Of a stretch of 64,000 nt of DNA, positions 52,736 to 59,681 are shown piece after piece. Each line of letters opens with the position of its first letter. Position 1 is the first letter of the stretch. Source of the DNA: Clostridia bacterium (GTDB lineage Bacteria > Bacillota > Clostridia > TANB77 > CAG-508); assembly GCA_022797215.1 (NCBI GenBank), contig JAAWKD010000005.1, forward strand, positions 2,198 through 66,197, in the 5' to 3' direction. The notes below the pieces were generated by a model that was not told where the DNA came from, did not search any database, and saw only the letters and a list, made by a program, of their open reading frames with translations. The position numbers and the translations under genes were made by a program.

Positions 52736-53160
52736 TAAAATTGGTATGCAAATGTATGACACGGATTTTTTTGAATTTTCGTGATATAAAAATTCATAGC
52801 ACGAATTTCCTCAATTTTTCGTTCTATAAAAAATAAGCATCAGCACATATCTACTGACACCCATTTAATAAAGATTCTCTATAACTCATTTTAATAAATT
52901 CTTTCTAACACTTGAAATACTTAACTTTTCTTTGTATCTACTTACCAGTACAACCTATACCTGTTATGCCTACCATAGACACAATCGTAACTTATCTAGT
53001 ATTTCAAACACTTTGCTCAATTTTCCAAAAATTAATTTATGTGTTTCCACTTACCACCTAAGCAACTACTTTAACTTTCACACCCAAATTTTGATGTTTT
53101 TCTTTCCCAAATCTGCCTTTCTCCTCAAAAGTTATAATCTCTGAAACTATATCAAAATCA

Positions 53161-53213
53161 AGTATTACATATCTTATTTTAGTTGTAGCACTGCTACACA
53201 CTCCACGTGACTT
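53161..53213. repeat. 53-bp repeat copy B (candidate attachment site) with the dyad TGTAGC-ACT-GCTACA
   Basis: Direct repeat of 47535..47587. The mismatches include the central base of the dyad. Confidence 0.6.
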
Positions 53214-53979: not shown

Positions 53980-54198
53980 ATGATTCAAGTAAATGTTAAA
54001 GAATTATTAAAAAAACAAAAGAGAAGTAAGTATTGGTTTGTGAAAAATATGGAGGGTGGTTATCAGGCTCTTACACGACTAATGGAAAATCAAACAAGTA
54101 GCATTCGTTTCGACACTCTTGAAAAAATGTGTGATTTGTTTGATTGTGAGATTGGCGAAATTATTGTTAGAAAGAAAGGAAATAAAAAACATGAGTAA
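53980..54198 (+). CDS. XRE/Cro-type HTH regulator (72 aa)
   Basis: RBS AAGGAGG. ...SKYWFVKNMEGGYQALTRLMENQTSSIRFDTLEKMCDLFDCEIGEI helix-turn-helix. Confidence 0.7.
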   Translation: MIQVNVKELLKKQKRSKYWFVKNMEGGYQALTRLMENQTSSIRFDTLEKMCDLFDCEIGEIIVRKKGNKKHE

Positions 54199-54574
54199 AC
54201 TAATGAAGCAATATGAAGAACTAAAGAAAAAGGATCCTGAAAAAATATACATATTCAAAGTAGGGATTTTTTATAATATATTAAACGAAGATGCAAGATT
54301 AGTTTCTAAAGAAATTGGTTTGAAGCTAACCGATTTAAGTCCTGAAATAGTTAAGTGTGGTTTCCCACTTTCTACCCTTGGGAAATACACCGAATTACTA
54401 TCAGAGCATAACATTAATTTTGAGGTTGTTCCTAATCTAACACCTTCTAATCAAAATACTTCTTATGATCAAATTATCAAAAAAATTAAAAGTATTGATT
54501 TGAATAATACAACTTGTAAGGAAGCATTTGATATACTTTATAATATACAACAAAAATTGAATAATATGCAATAG
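54192..54574 (+). CDS. MutS domain-I (mismatch-binding domain)-like small protein (127 aa)
   Basis: MSKLMKQYEELKKKDPEKIYIFKVGIFYNILNEDARLVSKEIGLKLTDL...PEIVKCGFPLSTLGKYTELL aligns with the MutS N-terminus ([31 protein letters not shown]...GVPYHA..YL.KL). It stops after domain I. RBS AAGGAAA. Confidence 0.6.
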
Positions 54575-54596
54575 AGGAGTTTTGCTCCTCTATTTT

Positions 54597-55571
54597 CTAT
54601 TGTACATCTGACTTATATACCCAAGACATGATTTCTTTTAGTAATACTCCATTAGGATGTGTATTTCCACTTCCTACTTGCATAATCGTATATGTCTTGC
54701 CTTTTACATAGTTTGGTATTGTTTGTCCTGTGCAATATTTATTTGCACTTGCCTTTAATGTTACTCTCTGACCTTTACTAAAACTAGTAGCTGTATTTGT
54801 TGTACTTGGTTGAGCTGTTCCACTTACTCTGCTTGTATAATCTAAGCAAATCCATCCTGCCCCTGACTTTAATTTTCCCCAATTTCCATATGTTTCTACT
54901 ATTGTATATGTACCTTTATCTCTAATACATCCTACAATTGGATTATTGGTTCCTGCTCCACTTCTAATGTTTAATGCATCTGCAGTAACTTTTACAAGAT
55001 AACTATTTGTTGTATTAGCTACTACATTTTCATTGTTAGAACTTCCTTGACCATTTATTTTATTGGCCTGTTCTACAATATAATCCATTTTTGATAATAA
55101 ATATCTGCCTGGACAATTTGTATTAGCATACATAGAGTGCCATACTACATTCTTTCCTTTTACAAGGGTTCCTAGTCCATTTCTTCTTGCTATATCTGCT
55201 ACTAATTCTATGAGTTTATTCAATACTTTATCTGAAACAGGATAATCTCCACCAATAGAACTATTTGATGTTTCTATGGTTACTGATTTACAATTACTAT
55301 CCCAATTTGAATTACACCATGATGTATTTGCTTCATCTACATATAATCCAACATCGGCATCTTTTCCTATTCCATAATTACTTGAGCCTTTTCTTCCTAC
55401 TCTTTGGAATATTCCTCCGCATTGTTTTGCAGTCAATACTCCTGCCATGTGGTGTATAGCAATCATTTCAATTTTTCTTCCGCTTCTTCCTACACTATAA
55501 TTACTAGAATGTGCAGGTACATTTACAGTTACTAAATTTGAATTACTCATCGCTTTCTTCTCCTTTCCCAT
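54597..55571 (-). CDS. phage endolysin: N-acetylmuramoyl-L-alanine amidase (Amidase_2/PGRP) with two SH3b cell-wall-binding domains
   Basis: IHHMAG...(Zn ligands), CPGRYLL, then repeats YLVKVTADALNIRSGAG / TYTIMQVGSGNT. Confidence 0.85.
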   Translation of the reverse strand: MGKEKKAMSNSNLVTVNVPAHSSNYSVGRSGRKIEMIAIHHMAGVLTAKQCGGIFQRVGRKGSSNYGIGKDADVGLYVDEANTSWCNSNWDSNCKSVTIETSNSSIGGDYPVSDKVLNKLIELVADIARRNGLGTLVKGKNVVWHSMYANTNCPGRYLLSKMDYIVEQANKINGQGSSNNENVVANTTNSYLVKVTADALNIRSGAGTNNPIVGCIRDKGTYTIVETYGNWGKLKSGAGWICLDYTSRVSGTAQPSTTNTATSFSKGQRVTLKASANKYCTGQTIPNYVKGKTYTIMQVGSGNTHPNGVLLKEIMSWVYKSDVQ

Positions 55572-56445: not shown

Positions 56446-56596
56446 TTTAAGGCTTAGAAACTGAATTATAAACTTCTCCTGTTATCTCTTTGTATTCCTC
56501 TTCTGTTATCCATTTACCAACTGCATTATATACTCTTGCTTGGTTCCATACTTGCGTATCGTAATATTTTTTGACTTTTTCAAAATTTTTACTCAT
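56446..56596 (-). CDS. XkdX-family phage protein (about 50 aa)
   Basis: MSKNFEKVKKYYDTQVWNQARVYNAVGKWITEEEYKEITGE matches the XkdX consensus. It is followed by the terminator hairpin at 56345-56390. Confidence 0.65.
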
Positions 56597-56599
56597 GAT

Positions 56600-56926
56600 C
56601 TATTCCTCCTCCATATCAATGTCTGCCATCATTGCTAGATATTCTATATCTGCTCTTGTTTTCATCTTTTCTAGTTCTTCTTGTGATACTTCTCTTAATA
56701 CGAAGTAATATCCATCTTCATAATGGGCTACTTGTACTAATTCCATTTGGTTGCATTCTTGATTAAATGTATTTCCATTTACTTCTCCTTCAAACTTTAC
56801 CTTTGATAATTTTCCTTTGAAAATATCCTCTGTAATTTCTGTTTCTGATACAAAATTGTTACCATTTAATCTAAGATCTGTAAGTTGCGTTCCATCAGAT
56901 AGCGTAATTTTCCATGATTTTTCCAT
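56600..56926 (-). CDS. XkdW-like phage protein
   Basis: 108 aa. Strong RBS AGGAGGAAGG. Its start overlaps the RT 3' end by 61 nt. Confidence 0.5.
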   Translation of the reverse strand: MEKSWKITLSDGTQLTDLRLNGNNFVSETEITEDIFKGKLSKVKFEGEVNGNTFNQECNQMELVQVAHYEDGYYFVLREVSQEELEKMKTRADIEYLAMMADIDMEEE

Positions 56927-57990
56927 GTTACCTTCCTCCTAAATAAATTATAATATAATTGTGACATATTTGTTATTTGTTGCATTGACATATTTTTATA
57001 ATTACTAGACATCCATGATTTGAATATATTTTCTATTTCTTCATAAGTTAACCTTTTTTGTTCTAGTAATCTTTTATATGCTTTTAGCTTTCTGCGTTCT
57101 CGAGTAATTGATTTTGGATGTATTTTTCTAACTACTCGACCTGTTTCTGTTAGTTTATATTGTAACTGTAAAATCCTAAATGTTTGAGATAATTTACATA
57201 GATGTGTTTTTTTAGGGTTTATTATTAATCCTAATTCATTTGCAATTTGTTGTATTTCTTTTAGTAATTGTTTTAGGAATTCTTTGCTTTCATGAATTAT
57301 ATACATATCATCTGTATATCTTCCATAATGTTTAACTCCCTTAACTATTTTTATATAGTTATCTATTCTTGCTGGGTATGCAATTCCTATATTTTGACTC
57401 GGTTGGCTTCCTATGTCTACTCCTCTTCTATTTTTATTATCTATATTAAATATTTCAAATATATTTTTTAGGATCCACAATGTAATTTGTGCCTCTTCTT
57501 TATCAGCTTTTTTCAAAAATTGTTGTAAATTTTCCAGACACAAATCATGAGGAATACTTGCGTAATAACCGCTAAAATCTATTAGCAGTATGTATCCCTC
57601 ATTATTTTTATGTTGTCTATAATATTGGTGTAAATGTATTTCTAATCTTTTTCTATGAAATGCTACACCTTTTCCTGTTTGACTTGCTCCATTATCATAT
57701 ATAAGGTAAGGTTTAATAGCTGGACTTAAAACATTATCACACATCAAATGATTTACTGTTTTGTCAATCATATTATTAGTAGTAATATGTCTTATTTTTC
57801 CTCTCTCTTTTATTGTAAATTTTCTACCCTTTGTTGGTTTATATGTTTTTTCTTTCATTGCTTTTTGTAATTCTGCAGTTAATAACAATTGGTTCATTTC
57901 AAAAAGCTGTGTTTGTTGTTTAAAAGGTGCCGCTTTTATTGACTTTGTTCCAGCTTCATATATTTTATTAGCATCACAAAAAATATTCAT
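56866..57990 (-). CDS. diversity-generating retroelement reverse transcriptase
   Basis: RT motifs LLIDFSGYYASIPHD (motif A), GVDIGSQPSQNIGIAY (DGR IGxxxSQ signature) and GRYTDDMYIIH (YxDD). 374 aa. A cognate TR lies immediately upstream. Confidence 0.9.
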   Translation of the reverse strand: MNIFCDANKIYEAGTKSIKAAPFKQQTQLFEMNQLLLTAELQKAMKEKTYKPTKGRKFTIKERGKIRHITTNNMIDKTVNHLMCDNVLSPAIKPYLIYDNGASQTGKGVAFHRKRLEIHLHQYYRQHKNNEGYILLIDFSGYYASIPHDLCLENLQQFLKKADKEEAQITLWILKNIFEIFNIDNKNRRGVDIGSQPSQNIGIAYPARIDNYIKIVKGVKHYGRYTDDMYIIHESKEFLKQLLKEIQQIANELGLIINPKKTHLCKLSQTFRILQLQYKLTETGRVVRKIHPKSITRERRKLKAYKRLLEQKRLTYEEIENIFKSWMSSNYKNMSMQQITNMSQLYYNLFRRKVTWKNHGKLRYLMERNLQILD

Positions 57991-58138
57991 AAATCACTTT
58001 TATAGTATTACTGATCGTAATCAAATACATAATGATTATCATTTATCAATTTTCACAAATTGAAGGGATAGTCTTTCCTTTCCTTTTCCCATTGCCATAC
58101 TTGTGGAAACTTAGCCCACTTTATTGTTGCATGGTTGT

Positions 58139-58233
58139 GAAATCAGGGCGAACGCCGTTCGAGTTGGAAGCACTGTTACTGTTCGCATTACCGTTGTTGT
58201 TCACATTAGCGAAGTTCGAAGAAGAAACAACAT
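58139..58233 (-). repeat. DGR template repeat (TR), 95 bp
   Basis: Identical to the VR except at 15 positions, all of which are A on the coding (minus) strand. In the VR frame it encodes ...NFANVNNNGNANSNSASNSNGVRPDF, an AAC-rich stretch. Confidence 0.9.
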
Positions 58234-58247
58234 ACAAAGAATACCCA

Positions 58248-58760
58248 CTATTTTTTTATATTTTTAAGAAATCTATTGTCAGATTGTCTGAGAGCCTTTA
58301 TCATATTGAATTCTTTTTGAATTCCTAATACTAAATTCGTATATTTATTAAGATCAGCATATAAACATTCTCCAATATATTGTAATTCGTCTTGCAAAGC
58401 ATTACAGCAAGCCATGGCTCTATCCATCTCTATTCTTCTTTCTTCAAATTCAGACATATAGGTAGGAAATATCGTATTTGCTATTCGCAAATGCTCACTT
58501 ATTCCACAAGCAAGTTCAATTACTCTATTTGTTGAACGATTTATTTGCTGCTTAAAGTAATCATAGGTTCTTTCCTTAATTCTTTTCTTATCATCATCTG
58601 GAAACAATTTTATTTTTTCTGCAATAATATTTTCTATCTTTGCTTCACTTATATAAAAATTATTTTCTGCTAATTTTGTTACCGCCCTTCTTATTGCATA
58701 TGCGTTGTGTATCGTTTCTAATTTTGATTCTTTTCTATTACTCTTTTTTATATCTGACAT
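58248..58760 (-). CDS. DGR accessory variability determinant (Avd)-like protein
   Basis: 170-aa basic helical protein sitting between the VR and the TR, the canonical Avd position. Confidence 0.55.
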   Translation of the reverse strand: MSDIKKSNRKESKLETIHNAYAIRRAVTKLAENNFYISEAKIENIIAEKIKLFPDDDKKRIKERTYDYFKQQINRSTNRVIELACGISEHLRIANTIFPTYMSEFEERRIEMDRAMACCNALQDELQYIGECLYADLNKYTNLVLGIQKEFNMIKALRQSDNRFLKNIKK

Positions 58761-58807
58761 TAGCTAATAATACTATTTTTCTCCTTCCTTATGTTCTCTA
58801 TTCTTTT

Positions 58808-58832
58808 CCTCAGGGCATAAAGCCCTGAGGAT
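58808..58832 (-). other. hairpin immediately downstream of the VR/IMH (DGR homing-enhancing stem-loop)
   Basis: cctcagggc-ataaa-gccctgagg, a 9-bp GC-rich perfect stem 7 nt past the target-gene stop. Confidence 0.6.
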
Positions 58833-58838
58833 GTATGA

Positions 58839-59681
58839 TTAATGGATTAGGAAAGCAGGGCGAACGCCGCCCGAGTCGGAAGCACTGCCACTGGACGCAT
58901 AACCGCCGTTGCCCACACCAGCGAAGTTCGAAGAAGAAACAACATCTCTTAACCAATACCAATATCTTTGCCCTGCATCGTTTAATACAATTATTGTTTC
59001 TGGTTTTAATTTGAATAAAGATAATTGTGATTTGTTATTTCCTGTCTCATATCCATGATGAGCTCCCCATGCATTGTGTCCATAAACCATACTTTCACTC
59101 ATTAACTCTACAGTCGTTTCATACCATGCCCACGCACTTGACTTGCCATCTGTAACTGCATTTGTCAATACATCTTGATGACTAAGAATATGATTTGTTT
59201 CAAAATCATTTTGTATTATTGTTTTAAATGGTATCAAATATTCCGTATGCATCTTACTTCCCTCATAAGCCCCTGTTGTAATATTAGTATCATTCATTTT
59301 AGCTGTTCCCATTATTCTTTCTGGTACCATCAAAACATGAGGTGTGGTACATTCTATGTCTCCACAATGTAGCCTATAATTAAGGTCAGCTACTATGTAT
59401 TTTCTATTGCTTACCTTTCCTATAATATAATCTCCTATGAAGATATCATCGAATGTTCCTGCTGCAATTTGTTCTGATAGTGTGCCATCATAAAACAAGC
59501 TAGTTATGTTCTTTCCTCTGTATATCCCATTATGTGCTGCTGCACTTTTAGGAATAATACTCTTAAGTAATGTTCCAAATGTGATTTTTTTAGTTTCTCC
59601 ATTTCCTAAATCGACCATACAGACTATGTCTGTTTCTTTAGCATCTGTTGCTTCTGTTAAGTCCGATATTTTCTTAATCAT
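58839..59681 (-). CDS. DGR target protein (phage receptor-binding/tail-fibre-like protein with C-terminal variable CLec-like region)
   Basis: 280 aa. The C-terminal ...NFAGVGNGGYASSGSASDSGGVRPAFLIH is encoded by the VR, and the VR ends 10 nt before the stop. Confidence 0.8.
   Translation of the reverse strand: MIKKISDLTEATDAKETDIVCMVDLGNGETKKITFGTLLKSIIPKSAAAHNGIYRGKNITSLFYDGTLSEQIAAGTFDDIFIGDYIIGKVSNRKYIVADLNYRLHCGDIECTTPHVLMVPERIMGTAKMNDTNITTGAYEGSKMHTEYLIPFKTIIQNDFETNHILSHQDVLTNAVTDGKSSAWAWYETTVELMSESMVYGHNAWGAHHGYETGNNKSQLSLFKLKPETIIVLNDAGQRYWYWLRDVVSSSNFAGVGNGGYASSGSASDSGGVRPAFLIH
58851..58945 (-). repeat. DGR variable repeat (VR), 95 bp
   Basis: 80/95 identical to the TR. TR A becomes G/C/T at 15 sites (AAC codons become GGC, GGT, TAT, TCC, GAC, GCT). 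The GC-rich 3' end CGGCGTTCGCCCTGC is conserved (IMH-like). Confidence 0.9.

Follow-up and report, generated by a model that had tools for sequence, protein, structure and literature searches.

In prokaryotes, no natural system for the targeted hypermutation of proteins is known other than diversity-generating retroelements (DGRs), whose richest habitat is the gut. [quoted passage not shown] DUF6273 has been described both as a C-type-lectin-like (CLec-like) domain and as a DGR target domain (PMC11792537, PMC10743442, bioRxiv 10.1101/2024.10.15.618418). Among the accessory genes of DGRs, the Msl (MutS-like) class encodes proteins of 112-283 aa with a pI of 7.2 ± 1.7, and the CH1 class encodes acidic proteins (pI ~4.7) of 160-169 aa in DGRs without avd, HRDC, and MSL (PMC5758913). 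In Bacteroides, deletion of the host mutS gene raises retrohoming 5- to 10-fold (bioRxiv 10.1101/2024.11.15.621889).

The window analyzed here, the whole stretch of 64,000 nucleotides, very probably carries a complete and currently active DGR, situated in the tail module of a prophage of siphovirus type whose host is an uncultured Clostridia bacterium of the gut. The genes and the template repeat (TR) and variable repeat (VR) of the cassette are as follows.

56866-57990, minus strand: DGR reverse transcriptase (RT), 374 aa (RVT_1, 2.3e-17; PHROG 1423 "reverse transcriptase," 4e-56)
58139-58233, minus strand: TR, 95 nt, intergenic, with 24 A and with 10 AAY and 2 AGT codons in its variable core
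58248-58760, minus strand: Avd-like accessory protein, 170 aa, basic, four-helix bundle with an extra helical insert
58839-59681, minus strand: DGR target gene, 280 aa, tail-fiber-like receptor-binding protein with a C-terminal DUF6273
58851-58945, minus strand: VR, with its diversified core at 58870-58928 (TR positions 18-76)

Every gene of the element is at present annotated as hypothetical.

All cassette open reading frames (ORFs) are intact, and target, Avd-like accessory gene, TR, and RT follow one another in the BPP-1-like order that a first-pass annotation had recognized, with the TR lying upstream of the RT and 148 nt separating its end from the RT start. The RT bears the motifs IGSQPSQ and YTDD, which align with IGSLTSQ and YMDD of the BPP-1 RT (bRT); the IGxxxSQ and YxDD motifs ascribed to it earlier are thus both present, catalytic residues included. 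Its best match in the PDB is 8ub7_A, the bRT of the BPP-1 DGR ribonucleoprotein, and counterparts of bRT R74 and I181 are retained. The related proteins found among phage records are DGR RTs from phages of Acutalibacter, Roseburia, Faecalibacterium, and Bordetella.

Comparison of repeats within the window recovered a 95-nt pair of 84% identity at exactly the positions first proposed for TR and VR. When the two were realigned on the minus (coding) strand, all 15 differences fell on an A of the TR (A>G 11, A>T 2, A>C 2) and none on any other base, as had been claimed. Because only 24 of the 95 TR positions are A, the chance that 15 random mismatches would all fall on A is 1.2e-11. Nine of the 24 TR adenines are the same in the VR of the window. 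The codon table gives the TR peptide as N-V-N-N-N-G-N-A-N-S-N-S-A-S-N-S-N versus G-V-G-N-G-G-Y-A-S-S-G-S-A-S-D-S-G for the VR, in agreement with the diversification of AAC codons reported before. The variable adenines sit in AAY and AGT codons, from which a stop codon cannot arise, and the 10 AAY and 2 AGT codons permit about 1e13 tip variants free of stop codons. The same specificity is found in 56 unique related TR/VR pairs, whose 731 mismatches include 714 at an adenine of the TR (A>G 395, A>T 174, A>C 145) and 17 elsewhere (for example, TG>GT at positions 31-32 in loci L001 and L002 and T>G at position 66 in locus L004), and in a second Msl-linked DGR lineage, where the count is 331 of 333.

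The VR occupies codons 246-277 of the 280-codon target ORF and is in frame, so that it lies inside the coding region and, as originally described, at the C terminus of a tail-fiber-like protein. The tail genes that precede the target gene encode Dit, Sipho_Gp37, and a protein of 281 aa. Residues 215-279 match DUF6273 (PF19789) with 25.2 bits against the Pfam cutoff of 23.5, and the domain is matched in all 50 of the 50 target family members; homologs of 418 aa have an N-terminal phage tail-collar fiber domain (PF12571). An AF2 model of the target was poor (pLDDT 47); a CLec-like fold is ascribed to it from the literature on DUF6273. Two elements mark the 3' side of the VR.

58851-58869, minus strand: IMH-like VR 3' end, CGGCGTTCGCCCTG-C-TTTC, GC-rich, matching the TR save for a fixed A/C difference
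58807-58831, minus strand: GC-rich hairpin, CCTCAGGGC-TTTAT-GCCCTGAGG, without a U-tract

The 15th mismatch, at TR position 91, is an A-to-C difference (GAT versus GCT) whose VR counterpart is the C at 58855, and it is invariant in all type-1 loci (51 pairs). Since this position is the same in every related element, we regard it as a fixed boundary marker (IMH/IMH*) and not as a product of mutagenesis. The initial description of 15 adenine mismatches therefore stands as to their position, but not as to the origin of the 15th; likewise, the GC-rich IMH-like end is conserved between TR and VR, as was claimed, in its CGGCGTTCGCCCTG portion but not at the fixed A/C site. The hairpin, first described as a 9-bp GC hairpin 7 nt beyond the stop, has a stem of 9-10 bp that begins 7-8 nt past the target stop codon (z = -3.15 against shuffles). 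In relatives, a hairpin occurs at a similar place just past the stop codon with compensatory changes in its stem (GACAGGGC/GCCCTGTC, GTCAGGGC/GCCCTGAC, and GCTAGGG/CCCTAGC), and we consider it a candidate target-recognition hairpin or cruciform.

The RNA surrounding the TR was analyzed with an alignment of 17 relatives, from consensus and single-sequence folds.

58236-58246, minus strand: 5' arm of a TR-enclosing RNA duplex (cPRT-Stop-like), directly after the avd stop codon
57991-58138, minus strand: spacer (Sp) RNA, from TR to RT
58119-58103, minus strand: inner stem of an Sp stem-loop directly 3' of the TR
58076-58066, minus strand: 3' arm of the enclosing duplex, within Sp
58063-58046, minus strand: short Sp stem-loop, followed by adenosines
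58037-57993, minus strand: long 3' Sp hairpin

The enclosing duplex corresponds to RNAalifold helix 1, which comprises 11 bp with 4 compensatory pairs and has 98.9% of cells paired. The consensus fold of the 17 relatives contains 14 compensatory pairs, compared with 5.7 ± 1.7 in shuffles, none of 500 of which reached 14, and with 0-4 in slid controls. As in the BPP-1 cPRT Stop, the region before the TR pairs with Sp, here over 11 bp, and a stem-loop and adenosines come next; this RNA architecture has thus been kept in a distant low-GC lineage.

A small operon beyond the lysis genes, at the end of the prophage, accompanies the element.

53980-54198, plus strand: Cro/C1-type HTH protein, 72 aa (PF13443 HTH_26, 3.1e-9)
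54191-54574, plus strand: Msl accessory protein, 127 aa, MutS domain I only, convergent with the lysin gene
54570-54594, bidirectional: terminator-like hairpin between the convergent Msl and lysin genes

The Msl protein (pI ~7.7; calculated value, 7.68) matches PF01624 MutS_I (1.2e-13) and Taq MutS (1ewq, 4.7e-6). Its GIFYNILNEDA motif is invariant; the Phe of the Phe-x-Glu motif is kept and the Glu, which contacts the mismatch, is always Asn. The first-pass annotation had noted a MutS domain I fragment 2.3 kb away, and the distance is indeed 2292 nt from the end of the Msl gene to the RT stop, but the protein is an intact, conserved member of the Msl class and not a fragment. In related loci the HTH gene and Msl invariably form a pair, and the 8-nt overlap between the HTH gene and the start of Msl suggests that the two are cotranscribed. 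The HTH-Msl operon, transcribed separately from the cassette, is most plausibly an accessory module, linked to the DGR yet dispensable, that would modulate host mismatch repair of the heavily mismatched cDNA:VR heteroduplex, a role that we infer for Msl here. One may go further and assume a dedicated remote control module, in which the Phe wedge of Msl (GIFYN, with Asn instead of the catalytic-signalling Glu) would cover the dense A-site mismatches of the heteroduplex, so that host MutS would be kept away from them and retrohoming would become more productive, and the HTH protein would set the timing; we offer this version as a tentative possibility. If it were true, natural variants with truncated Msl would be of lower efficiency, and the phage family would be a tractable system for studying Msl function and the escape of DGRs from mismatch repair.

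It is also possible, though in our view somewhat doubtful, that the HTH and Msl genes have nothing to do with the DGR and form a moron or immunity pair at the prophage end, for instance one interfering with mismatch repair in general recombination, their association with the DGR being due to shared ancestry and synteny. The operon lies outside the cassette on the opposite strand, separated from it by XkdW/XkdX-like, holin-like, and lysin genes, and ends in a terminator of its own. Moreover, in four related loci (L137, L139, L140, and L143) Msl is cut to a 57-aa remnant from which MutS_I has been deleted, while DGRs are present with diversified VRs; L137 and L139 even have a TR in common and different VRs. 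No Msl homolog was detected in the syntenic Acutalibacter phage Fontainebleau, the closest isolated phage, and no close one in deposited phage genomes. The remnants in DGR-positive genomes and the result for Fontainebleau indicate that Msl is dispensable for diversification and that its linkage could partly reflect shared ancestry. Against an unrelated pair, however, Msl and a DGR RT occur together in 43/43 and 12/12 loci with adequate flanking sequence, Msl lying 2.1-3.2 kb from the RT and past the lysis genes in related loci. These loci span two RT lineages of only 23-33% mutual identity, the second of which has another TR length and no avd gene between VR and TR. The linkage of Msl and RT holds although the lysin between Msl and the DGR has been swapped repeatedly, and 16 phage loci that bear Gp37 and are distantly related lack both the DGR and Msl. 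Small MutS-like proteins are, in addition, an independently described class of DGR accessory proteins (PMC5758913), and host MutS suppresses retrohoming (bioRxiv 10.1101/2024.11.15.621889). An accessory module that is linked but dispensable thus remains our preferred reading, and these loci suggest that the gene for an Msl-type MutS domain I protein may stay in close linkage with a DGR from a place outside the cassette.

The "Avd" label previously given to the 170-aa protein is borne out by its fold, charge, and position but not by its sequence. The protein is small and basic (pI 9.08), has an Avd-like four-helix-bundle fold, and is encoded between target and TR; searches of Pfam, NCBIfam, and PDB with the single sequence and with profiles (A3, A6) gave no Avd match, a 45-member profile (~33% mean identity) matched neither the Avd models nor the Avd sequences of the PDB significantly, and one of the 45 relatives matches PF05635 at a nonsignificant E value of 0.015. 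Four-helix bundles are a common fold, and the fold match is therefore only moderately specific. That the protein is not an Avd homolog at all, but another accessory factor, such as a CH1 protein, or some helical protein of unrelated origin at the avd position, seems to us improbable, even though convergence repeatedly yields helical bundles and a length of 170 aa is near that of CH1 (160-169 aa) and unlike the ~110-130 aa usual for Avd. Assignment to CH1 was rejected, as the basic pI differs from that of the acidic CH1 proteins and Msl is present. An Avd-like protein is thus the favored identification, and Avd may diverge past sequence recognition yet keep its fold.

Near-identical prophages from other samples point to recent diversification. 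The window and loci L001-L004, five copies in all, have one and the same TR but different VRs. Between L004 and the window there are 14 differences in 2816 cassette bases, 13 of them within the 95-nt VR; outside the VR, a single difference was found in 2721 cassette bases, and 2151 flanking bases are 100% identical. Within the 90%-identity cluster of the target (12 members), variation is almost confined to VR codons whose TR counterparts are AAY or AGT, and in a second target cluster (380 members) all VRs are different among the 15 members listed. DGR activity is evidently ongoing, to judge from these differences between metagenomic samples, and the description of the element as functional-looking is strengthened, because in near-identical prophages the TR is kept and differences between the VRs are nearly confined to positions with an adenine in the TR. 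That the cassette is a fossil, once active and now inert, with purely historical TR/VR differences, is most improbable: many catalogued DGRs are inactive under laboratory conditions and the window VR leaves 9 of the 24 TR adenines unchanged, but the ORFs and RT catalytic motifs are intact, the TR has been preserved across five independent copies, the RNA scaffold is under purifying selection with covariation, and the 13 VR differences between otherwise near-identical prophages require very recent, VR-specific change.

By analogy with the BPP-1 DGR, the following mechanism may be proposed. The avd-TR-Sp-RT region would be transcribed, and the RNA flanking the TR would fold into the 11-bp duplex, the short stem-loop with its adenosines, and the further hairpins. 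This scaffold would be bound by the RT together with the basic helical-bundle Avd-like protein, and the RT would copy the TR into cDNA, misincorporating opposite template adenines. The cDNA would then replace the VR at the 3' end of the tail fiber gene, probably guided by the GC-rich IMH-like boundary and the hairpin past the stop codon. The resulting variants of the DUF6273 (putatively C-type-lectin-like) ligand-binding tip could let the phage switch receptor specificity.

The element adds a well-documented, apparently active example from uncultured Clostridia prophages, with a comparative data set of ~80 TR/VR pairs and a natural series of Msl states (full-length, truncated, and absent) for the study of Msl function. 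It leaves the current picture of DGR biology unchanged, and the gain is mainly one of annotation; the DGR is a well-supported but ordinary addition to a known class.

With BPP-1 (mtd-avd-TR-brt), the element shares the gene order target-accessory-TR-RT, a VR at the 3' end of a tail fiber receptor-binding gene, adenine-specific mismatches mainly in AAY codons, a GC-rich IMH-like boundary at which a marker position distinguishes TR from VR, and a GC hairpin shortly beyond the VR. Both RTs have IGxxxSQ and YxDD and the R74 and I181 residues or their counterparts, and the accessory protein has the Avd fold. In contrast, the RT matches bRT weakly (phmmer E value, 4.8e-7), the accessory protein, at 170 aa and with an extra helical insert, shows no detectable resemblance to Avd in sequence, a DUF6273 protein of 280 aa takes the place of Mtd as target, the host is a low-GC Clostridia bacterium, and there is an accompanying Msl-HTH operon. 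The TR has 95 nt, against 134 nt in BPP-1.

The DUF6273-target DGRs of Faecalibacterium prophages (Lelie, Roos, Pioen, Toutatisvirus) and of phages nd4/nd12, together with the DGR of Acutalibacter phage Fontainebleau, have in common with the present one the gut setting and a VR at the C terminus of DUF6273. Their RTs are 30-47% identical to the RT described here, and Fontainebleau is syntenic in its tail genes, target, accessory protein, RT, holin, and amidase. A nucleotide search of 50,697 phage records gave no match, and the prophage represents another lineage, with a single target and without a tentaclin or Ig-domain target. To the Msl DGRs (Architecture D of Wu et al. 2018; Bacteroides Bfr, Bth, and Bun; Legionella) the element is likened by class description: here too, a small protein with the MutS mismatch recognition domain and a near-neutral pI occurs with an avd-type gene. 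Unlike in that class, the Msl gene is located outside the cassette, past the lysis genes and on the opposite strand, is translationally coupled to a Cro/C1-type HTH gene, and encodes Asn in place of Glu.

The diversity-generating retroelement (DGR) lies in a minus-strand cassette whose target gene, accessory gene, template repeat (TR), spacer, and reverse transcriptase (RT) are arranged as follows.

59681-58839, minus strand: target ORF, 280 codons
58760-58248, minus strand: 170-aa ORF
58233-58139, minus strand: TR, intergenic
between TR and RT, minus strand: spacer, 148 nt
57990-56866, minus strand: reverse transcriptase, 374 aa (RVT_1, 2.3e-17; PHROG 1423 "reverse transcriptase," 4e-56)

The TR and the variable repeat (VR) form a 95-nt direct repeat of 84% identity (58139-58233 and 58851-58945), and a search for extra VRs in the window found no copies beyond this pair. 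The first-pass annotation held that all 15 differences between them fall on TR adenines, and realignment on the minus strand with tabulation by TR base bore this out: 15 of 15 mismatches are at an A of the 58233-58139 copy (11 A>G, 2 A>T, and 2 A>C). With 24 A per 95 nt in the TR, 15 random mismatches would all fall on A with a chance of 1.2e-11; the repeat pattern is real and far beyond chance. Also as annotated, the VR is at the C terminus of the 280-aa protein, in frame at codons 246 to 277, and the TR AAY codons are read there as G, G, G, Y, S, G, D, and G. The adenine bias extends to 714 of the 731 mismatches in 56 unique TR/VR pairs of this lineage and to 331 of 333 in a second, distantly related Msl-linked DGR lineage, Msl being the MutS-like protein described below.

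While all 15 differences are at TR adenines, one of them should not be counted as mutagenesis. At TR position 91, GAT in the TR faces GCT in the VR; the same A/C difference is found in all related elements (51 pairs), however the remaining VR varies, and the Ala that it encodes (column A276) is nearly invariant, being kept in at least 90% of 50 relatives. Because the difference is fixed and the Ala nearly invariant, position 91 must lie past the limit of cDNA information transfer; it serves as a TR/VR marker of the IMH*/IMH type adjoining the GC-rich CGGCGTTCGCCCTG. The diversified core comprises TR positions 18 to 76 and holds 10 AAY and 2 AGT codons, which could encode ~15^10 x 4^2 (roughly 1e13) different proteins without ever producing a stop codon. 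Non-adenine mismatches (17 of 731 in the lineage) include a TG>GT change at TR positions 31 and 32, common to the near-identical prophage copies L001 (10767-10768) and L002 (1636-1637), and a T>G change at TR position 66 in a further copy, L004 (9844); such rare differences might have arisen by ordinary mutation or through errors of the RT at bases other than A.

Natural populations provide the record of diversification. The target family comprises at least 1,503 cluster representatives, which are invariant over most of their length and hypervariable at fixed C-terminal columns (FAxVxxxGxAxxGxASxxxGVRPAFLI). Among the 12 sequences in the 90%-identity cluster to which the window's target belongs, variation is almost confined to TR AAY/AGT codons, and in a second cluster of 380 sequences all 15 of the members listed have different VRs. 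At the DNA level, four copies of the same prophage (L001 to L004), from different samples, share a TR identical to that of the window and carry four different VRs. Of the 2816 cassette bases, L004 and the window disagree at 14, and 13 of these fall within the 95-nt VR; the flanks of L004 are 100% identical to the window over 2151 bases. The pattern in these comparisons requires that change has been recent and repeated, confined to the VR, and templated at adenines, which amounts to mutagenic retrohoming. The initial description of a functional-looking DGR is upheld by the identical TRs with differing VRs in these near-identical prophages, and its overall interpretation is supported: the element is a complete and evidently active DGR with the classical architecture of BPP-1, carried by a prophage of uncultured Clostridia from the gut.

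[quoted passage not shown] The closest solved relative of the RT is 8ub7 chain A, the RT of the Bordetella phage DGR ribonucleoprotein. The IGxxxSQ and YxDD motifs reported at first reading are present as IGSQPSQ and YTDD, aligned with IGSLTSQ and YMDD of 8ub7, and the equivalents of bRT R74 and I181 are conserved. Upstream of the cassette are tail genes (SPP1_Dit/Sipho_tail, Sipho_Gp37, and a 281-aa virion protein) and downstream a 108-aa acidic ORF, XkdX, two small membrane-like ORFs, and an amidase-SH3 lysin; the cassette is therefore at the tail-fiber position of the prophage, whose end is near 53.2 kb. The GC content of the window is 26 to 33%. The target protein is identical to MCI9038676.1 of a "Clostridia bacterium" MAG, and 22 of 22 related genomic loci were recovered in MAGs of uncultured Clostridia living in mouse, human, and roe-deer gut. 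No match to the cassette turned up in a megablast search of 50,697 phage records.

Several features of the neighborhood were also recorded. The 108-aa ORF (pI 4.4; 56600-56926, minus strand) shares 61 nt with the 3' end of the RT gene and is followed by XkdX (56447-56596). Every related locus has this ORF, in the place occupied by XkdW in PBSX-like phages, and domain and family searches gave no family match for it. The lysin between the DGR and Msl has been swapped repeatedly among otherwise similar prophages (identities of 27 to 87% elsewhere), being Amidase_2+SH3 in the window (54597-55571) and Amidase_2+LysM+CW_7 in L003 (8332-9414), with the RT, XkdW-like, Msl, and HTH genes keeping their place. 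A 53-nt direct repeat, 94% identical, is found at 47525-47577 and 53160-53212 (spacing, 5635 nt). Its right copy coincides with the end of homology to L003, that is, the prophage end or att site, and its left copy falls at the 3' end of the gene (47498-49270) for a large serine recombinase of 590 aa. The intervening 5.6 kb, with an Mrr_N-like gene, a SAM methyltransferase, and a GNAT-pyrophosphatase fusion, may be a second element integrated in tandem at the same site.

Pfam DUF6273 matches target residues 215 to 279 just above threshold and matches 50 of 50 relatives tested; some relatives have a tail-collar fiber domain at the N terminus. Three papers describe DUF6273 as a domain of DGR targets, with the VR located C-terminally in it and a C-type-lectin-like fold in models (PMC11792537, PMC10743442, bioRxiv 10.1101/2024.10.15.618418). 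Our own predicted target structure (pLDDT 47) is too poor for fold assignment, and sequence and profile searches against the PDB returned nothing useful.

The naming of the 170-aa protein as Avd stands in part. Sequence and profile searches of Pfam, NCBIfam, and PDB sequences, the profiles being built from a family of 530 representatives by exhaustive HMM search, found no significant match and no link to Avd. The protein is basic (pI 9.1), as are Avd proteins (pI 9.5 ± 0.7); the CH1 class, of similar length, is acidic (PMC5758913), and a CH1 identity was ruled out by charge and by co-occurrence with Msl. We class the protein as Avd-like by fold, charge, and position between target and TR.

As annotated at first (9 bp, 7 nt past the stop), a GC-rich hairpin follows the target gene; we find 9 to 10 bp (58831-58807) beginning 7 to 8 nt past the stop codon, with no U-tract. 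Relatives have a hairpin at a similar position just 3' of the stop codon, with compensatory stem changes. BPP-1 target recognition requires a VR-proximal hairpin or cruciform, and by analogy the window hairpin would fit this role. For the RNA scaffold, the region from the avd stop to the RT start was aligned for 17 relatives and a consensus fold was computed with RNAalifold.

58246-58236 (just 5' of TR) with 58076-58066 (spacer), minus strand: TR-enclosing duplex, 11 bp, four compensatory pairs
58063-58046, minus strand: short stem-loop, then adenosines (RNAalifold prediction)
just 3' of TR, minus strand: small hairpin (RNAalifold prediction)
58037-57993, minus strand: long 3' hairpin, six compensatory pairs

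The predicted fold has 14 compensatory pairs, compared with 5.7 ± 1.7 in column shuffles (0 of 500 reach 14) and 0 to 4 in slid controls. Just 3' of the TR, RNAalifold gave only an inner 5-bp stem owing to alignment register shifts; single-sequence folds suggest a longer outer stem, without statistical support. The predicted layout is that of BPP-1, in which an 11-bp avd:Sp "cPRT Stop" duplex, a stem-loop, A-minor adenosines, and an Avd-binding stem-loop after the TR are found; a further 207 DGRs are predicted to share it (bioRxiv 10.1101/2023.10.23.563531). An Rfam scan of 53.5 to 60.5 kb found no known RNA families; its single hit, a sub-threshold DUF805b RNA match inside the lysin gene (55394-55420, minus strand; 19.6 bits versus a gathering score of 35.6; E, 0.068) is most likely due to chance. 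A promoter scan was uninformative (35 sites versus 38.7 expected).

What had been called a MutS domain-I fragment is instead a conserved, complete ORF.

54191-54574 from ATG, plus strand: Msl, 127 aa, MutS domain I (Pfam, 1.2e-13; Taq MutS, 4.7e-6)

Its start overlaps by 8 nt an upstream 72-aa Cro/C1-type HTH gene, and it converges with the lysin gene across a bidirectional terminator-like hairpin. At least 478 cluster representatives match it in length. Its GIFYNILNEDA motif is invariant; the mismatch-stacking Phe is kept there and the Glu of Phe-x-Glu is Asn. The idea that prophage insertion had split a host mutS and left its 5' part here was rejected because the 127-aa ORF is conserved intact, and always next to the HTH gene, across hundreds of contigs from prophages and viruses. 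MSL/Msl accessory proteins of DGRs have 112 to 283 aa and a pI of 7.2 ± 1.7 and co-occur with avd (PMC5758913); the window's protein (pI 7.7) matches this class, as compared by its published description. The class was noted in Bacteroides DGRs, where host mutS deletion raises retrohoming 5- to 10-fold (bioRxiv 10.1101/2024.11.15.621889).

Among IMG/VR loci with enough flanking sequence (at least 4.5 kb around Msl and at least 3.6 kb around the RT), 43 of 43 Msl loci have an RT 2.1 to 3.2 kb away, and 12 of 12 RT loci have Msl. The linkage recurs in the second DGR lineage (RT 23 to 33% identical; TR of 111 to 117 nt), which has no avd between VR and TR, the spacing of only ~260 nt leaving no room for one. 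Its RT appears on many independent contigs as two overlapping ORFs of ~200 and ~175 aa (IMG/VR loci L013, L014, L024, L027, L039-L041, L048-L051, L053, L057, L058, L063, L065, and L066; in L013, 3354-3944 and 2864-3388), which may mean that the RT is frameshifted or split, or that an assembly artifact recurs. Neither DGR nor Msl was found in 16 distant Gp37-bearing phage loci. Four GTDB genomes (L137, L139, L140, and L143) have lost the MutS_I domain and retain a 57-aa Msl remnant with an intact HTH partner.

L137 9535-9708 and L139 9557-9730: Msl remnant ORF, 57 aa, C-terminal tail only (…IKNIDLLNTS…NNIQQKLNNMQ)

L137 and L139 share one TR and have different VRs; thus, the MutS_I domain is not needed for diversification. 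Acutalibacter phage Fontainebleau, the closest isolated phage, is syntenic with the window element and has an RT 47% identical to it, but a homologue search detected no Msl there. Given the truncated forms with diversified VRs and the Msl-less Fontainebleau, Msl is tightly linked to the DGR yet dispensable. Msl may protect the cDNA:VR heteroduplex from mismatch repair. A further reading, tentative and in our view rather unlikely, makes HTH-Msl a control module dedicated to the DGR and directed against mismatch repair.

Tens of thousands of DGRs have been catalogued, with gut phages as their main reservoir, and both DUF6273 targets and Msl accessories have been described already. Three details are slightly beyond routine: the Avd is recognizable by fold only; covariation clearly supports the cPRT-Stop RNA architecture in a low-GC lineage; and the Msl operon, coupled to an HTH gene, lies remote from the cassette and has naturally truncated variants.
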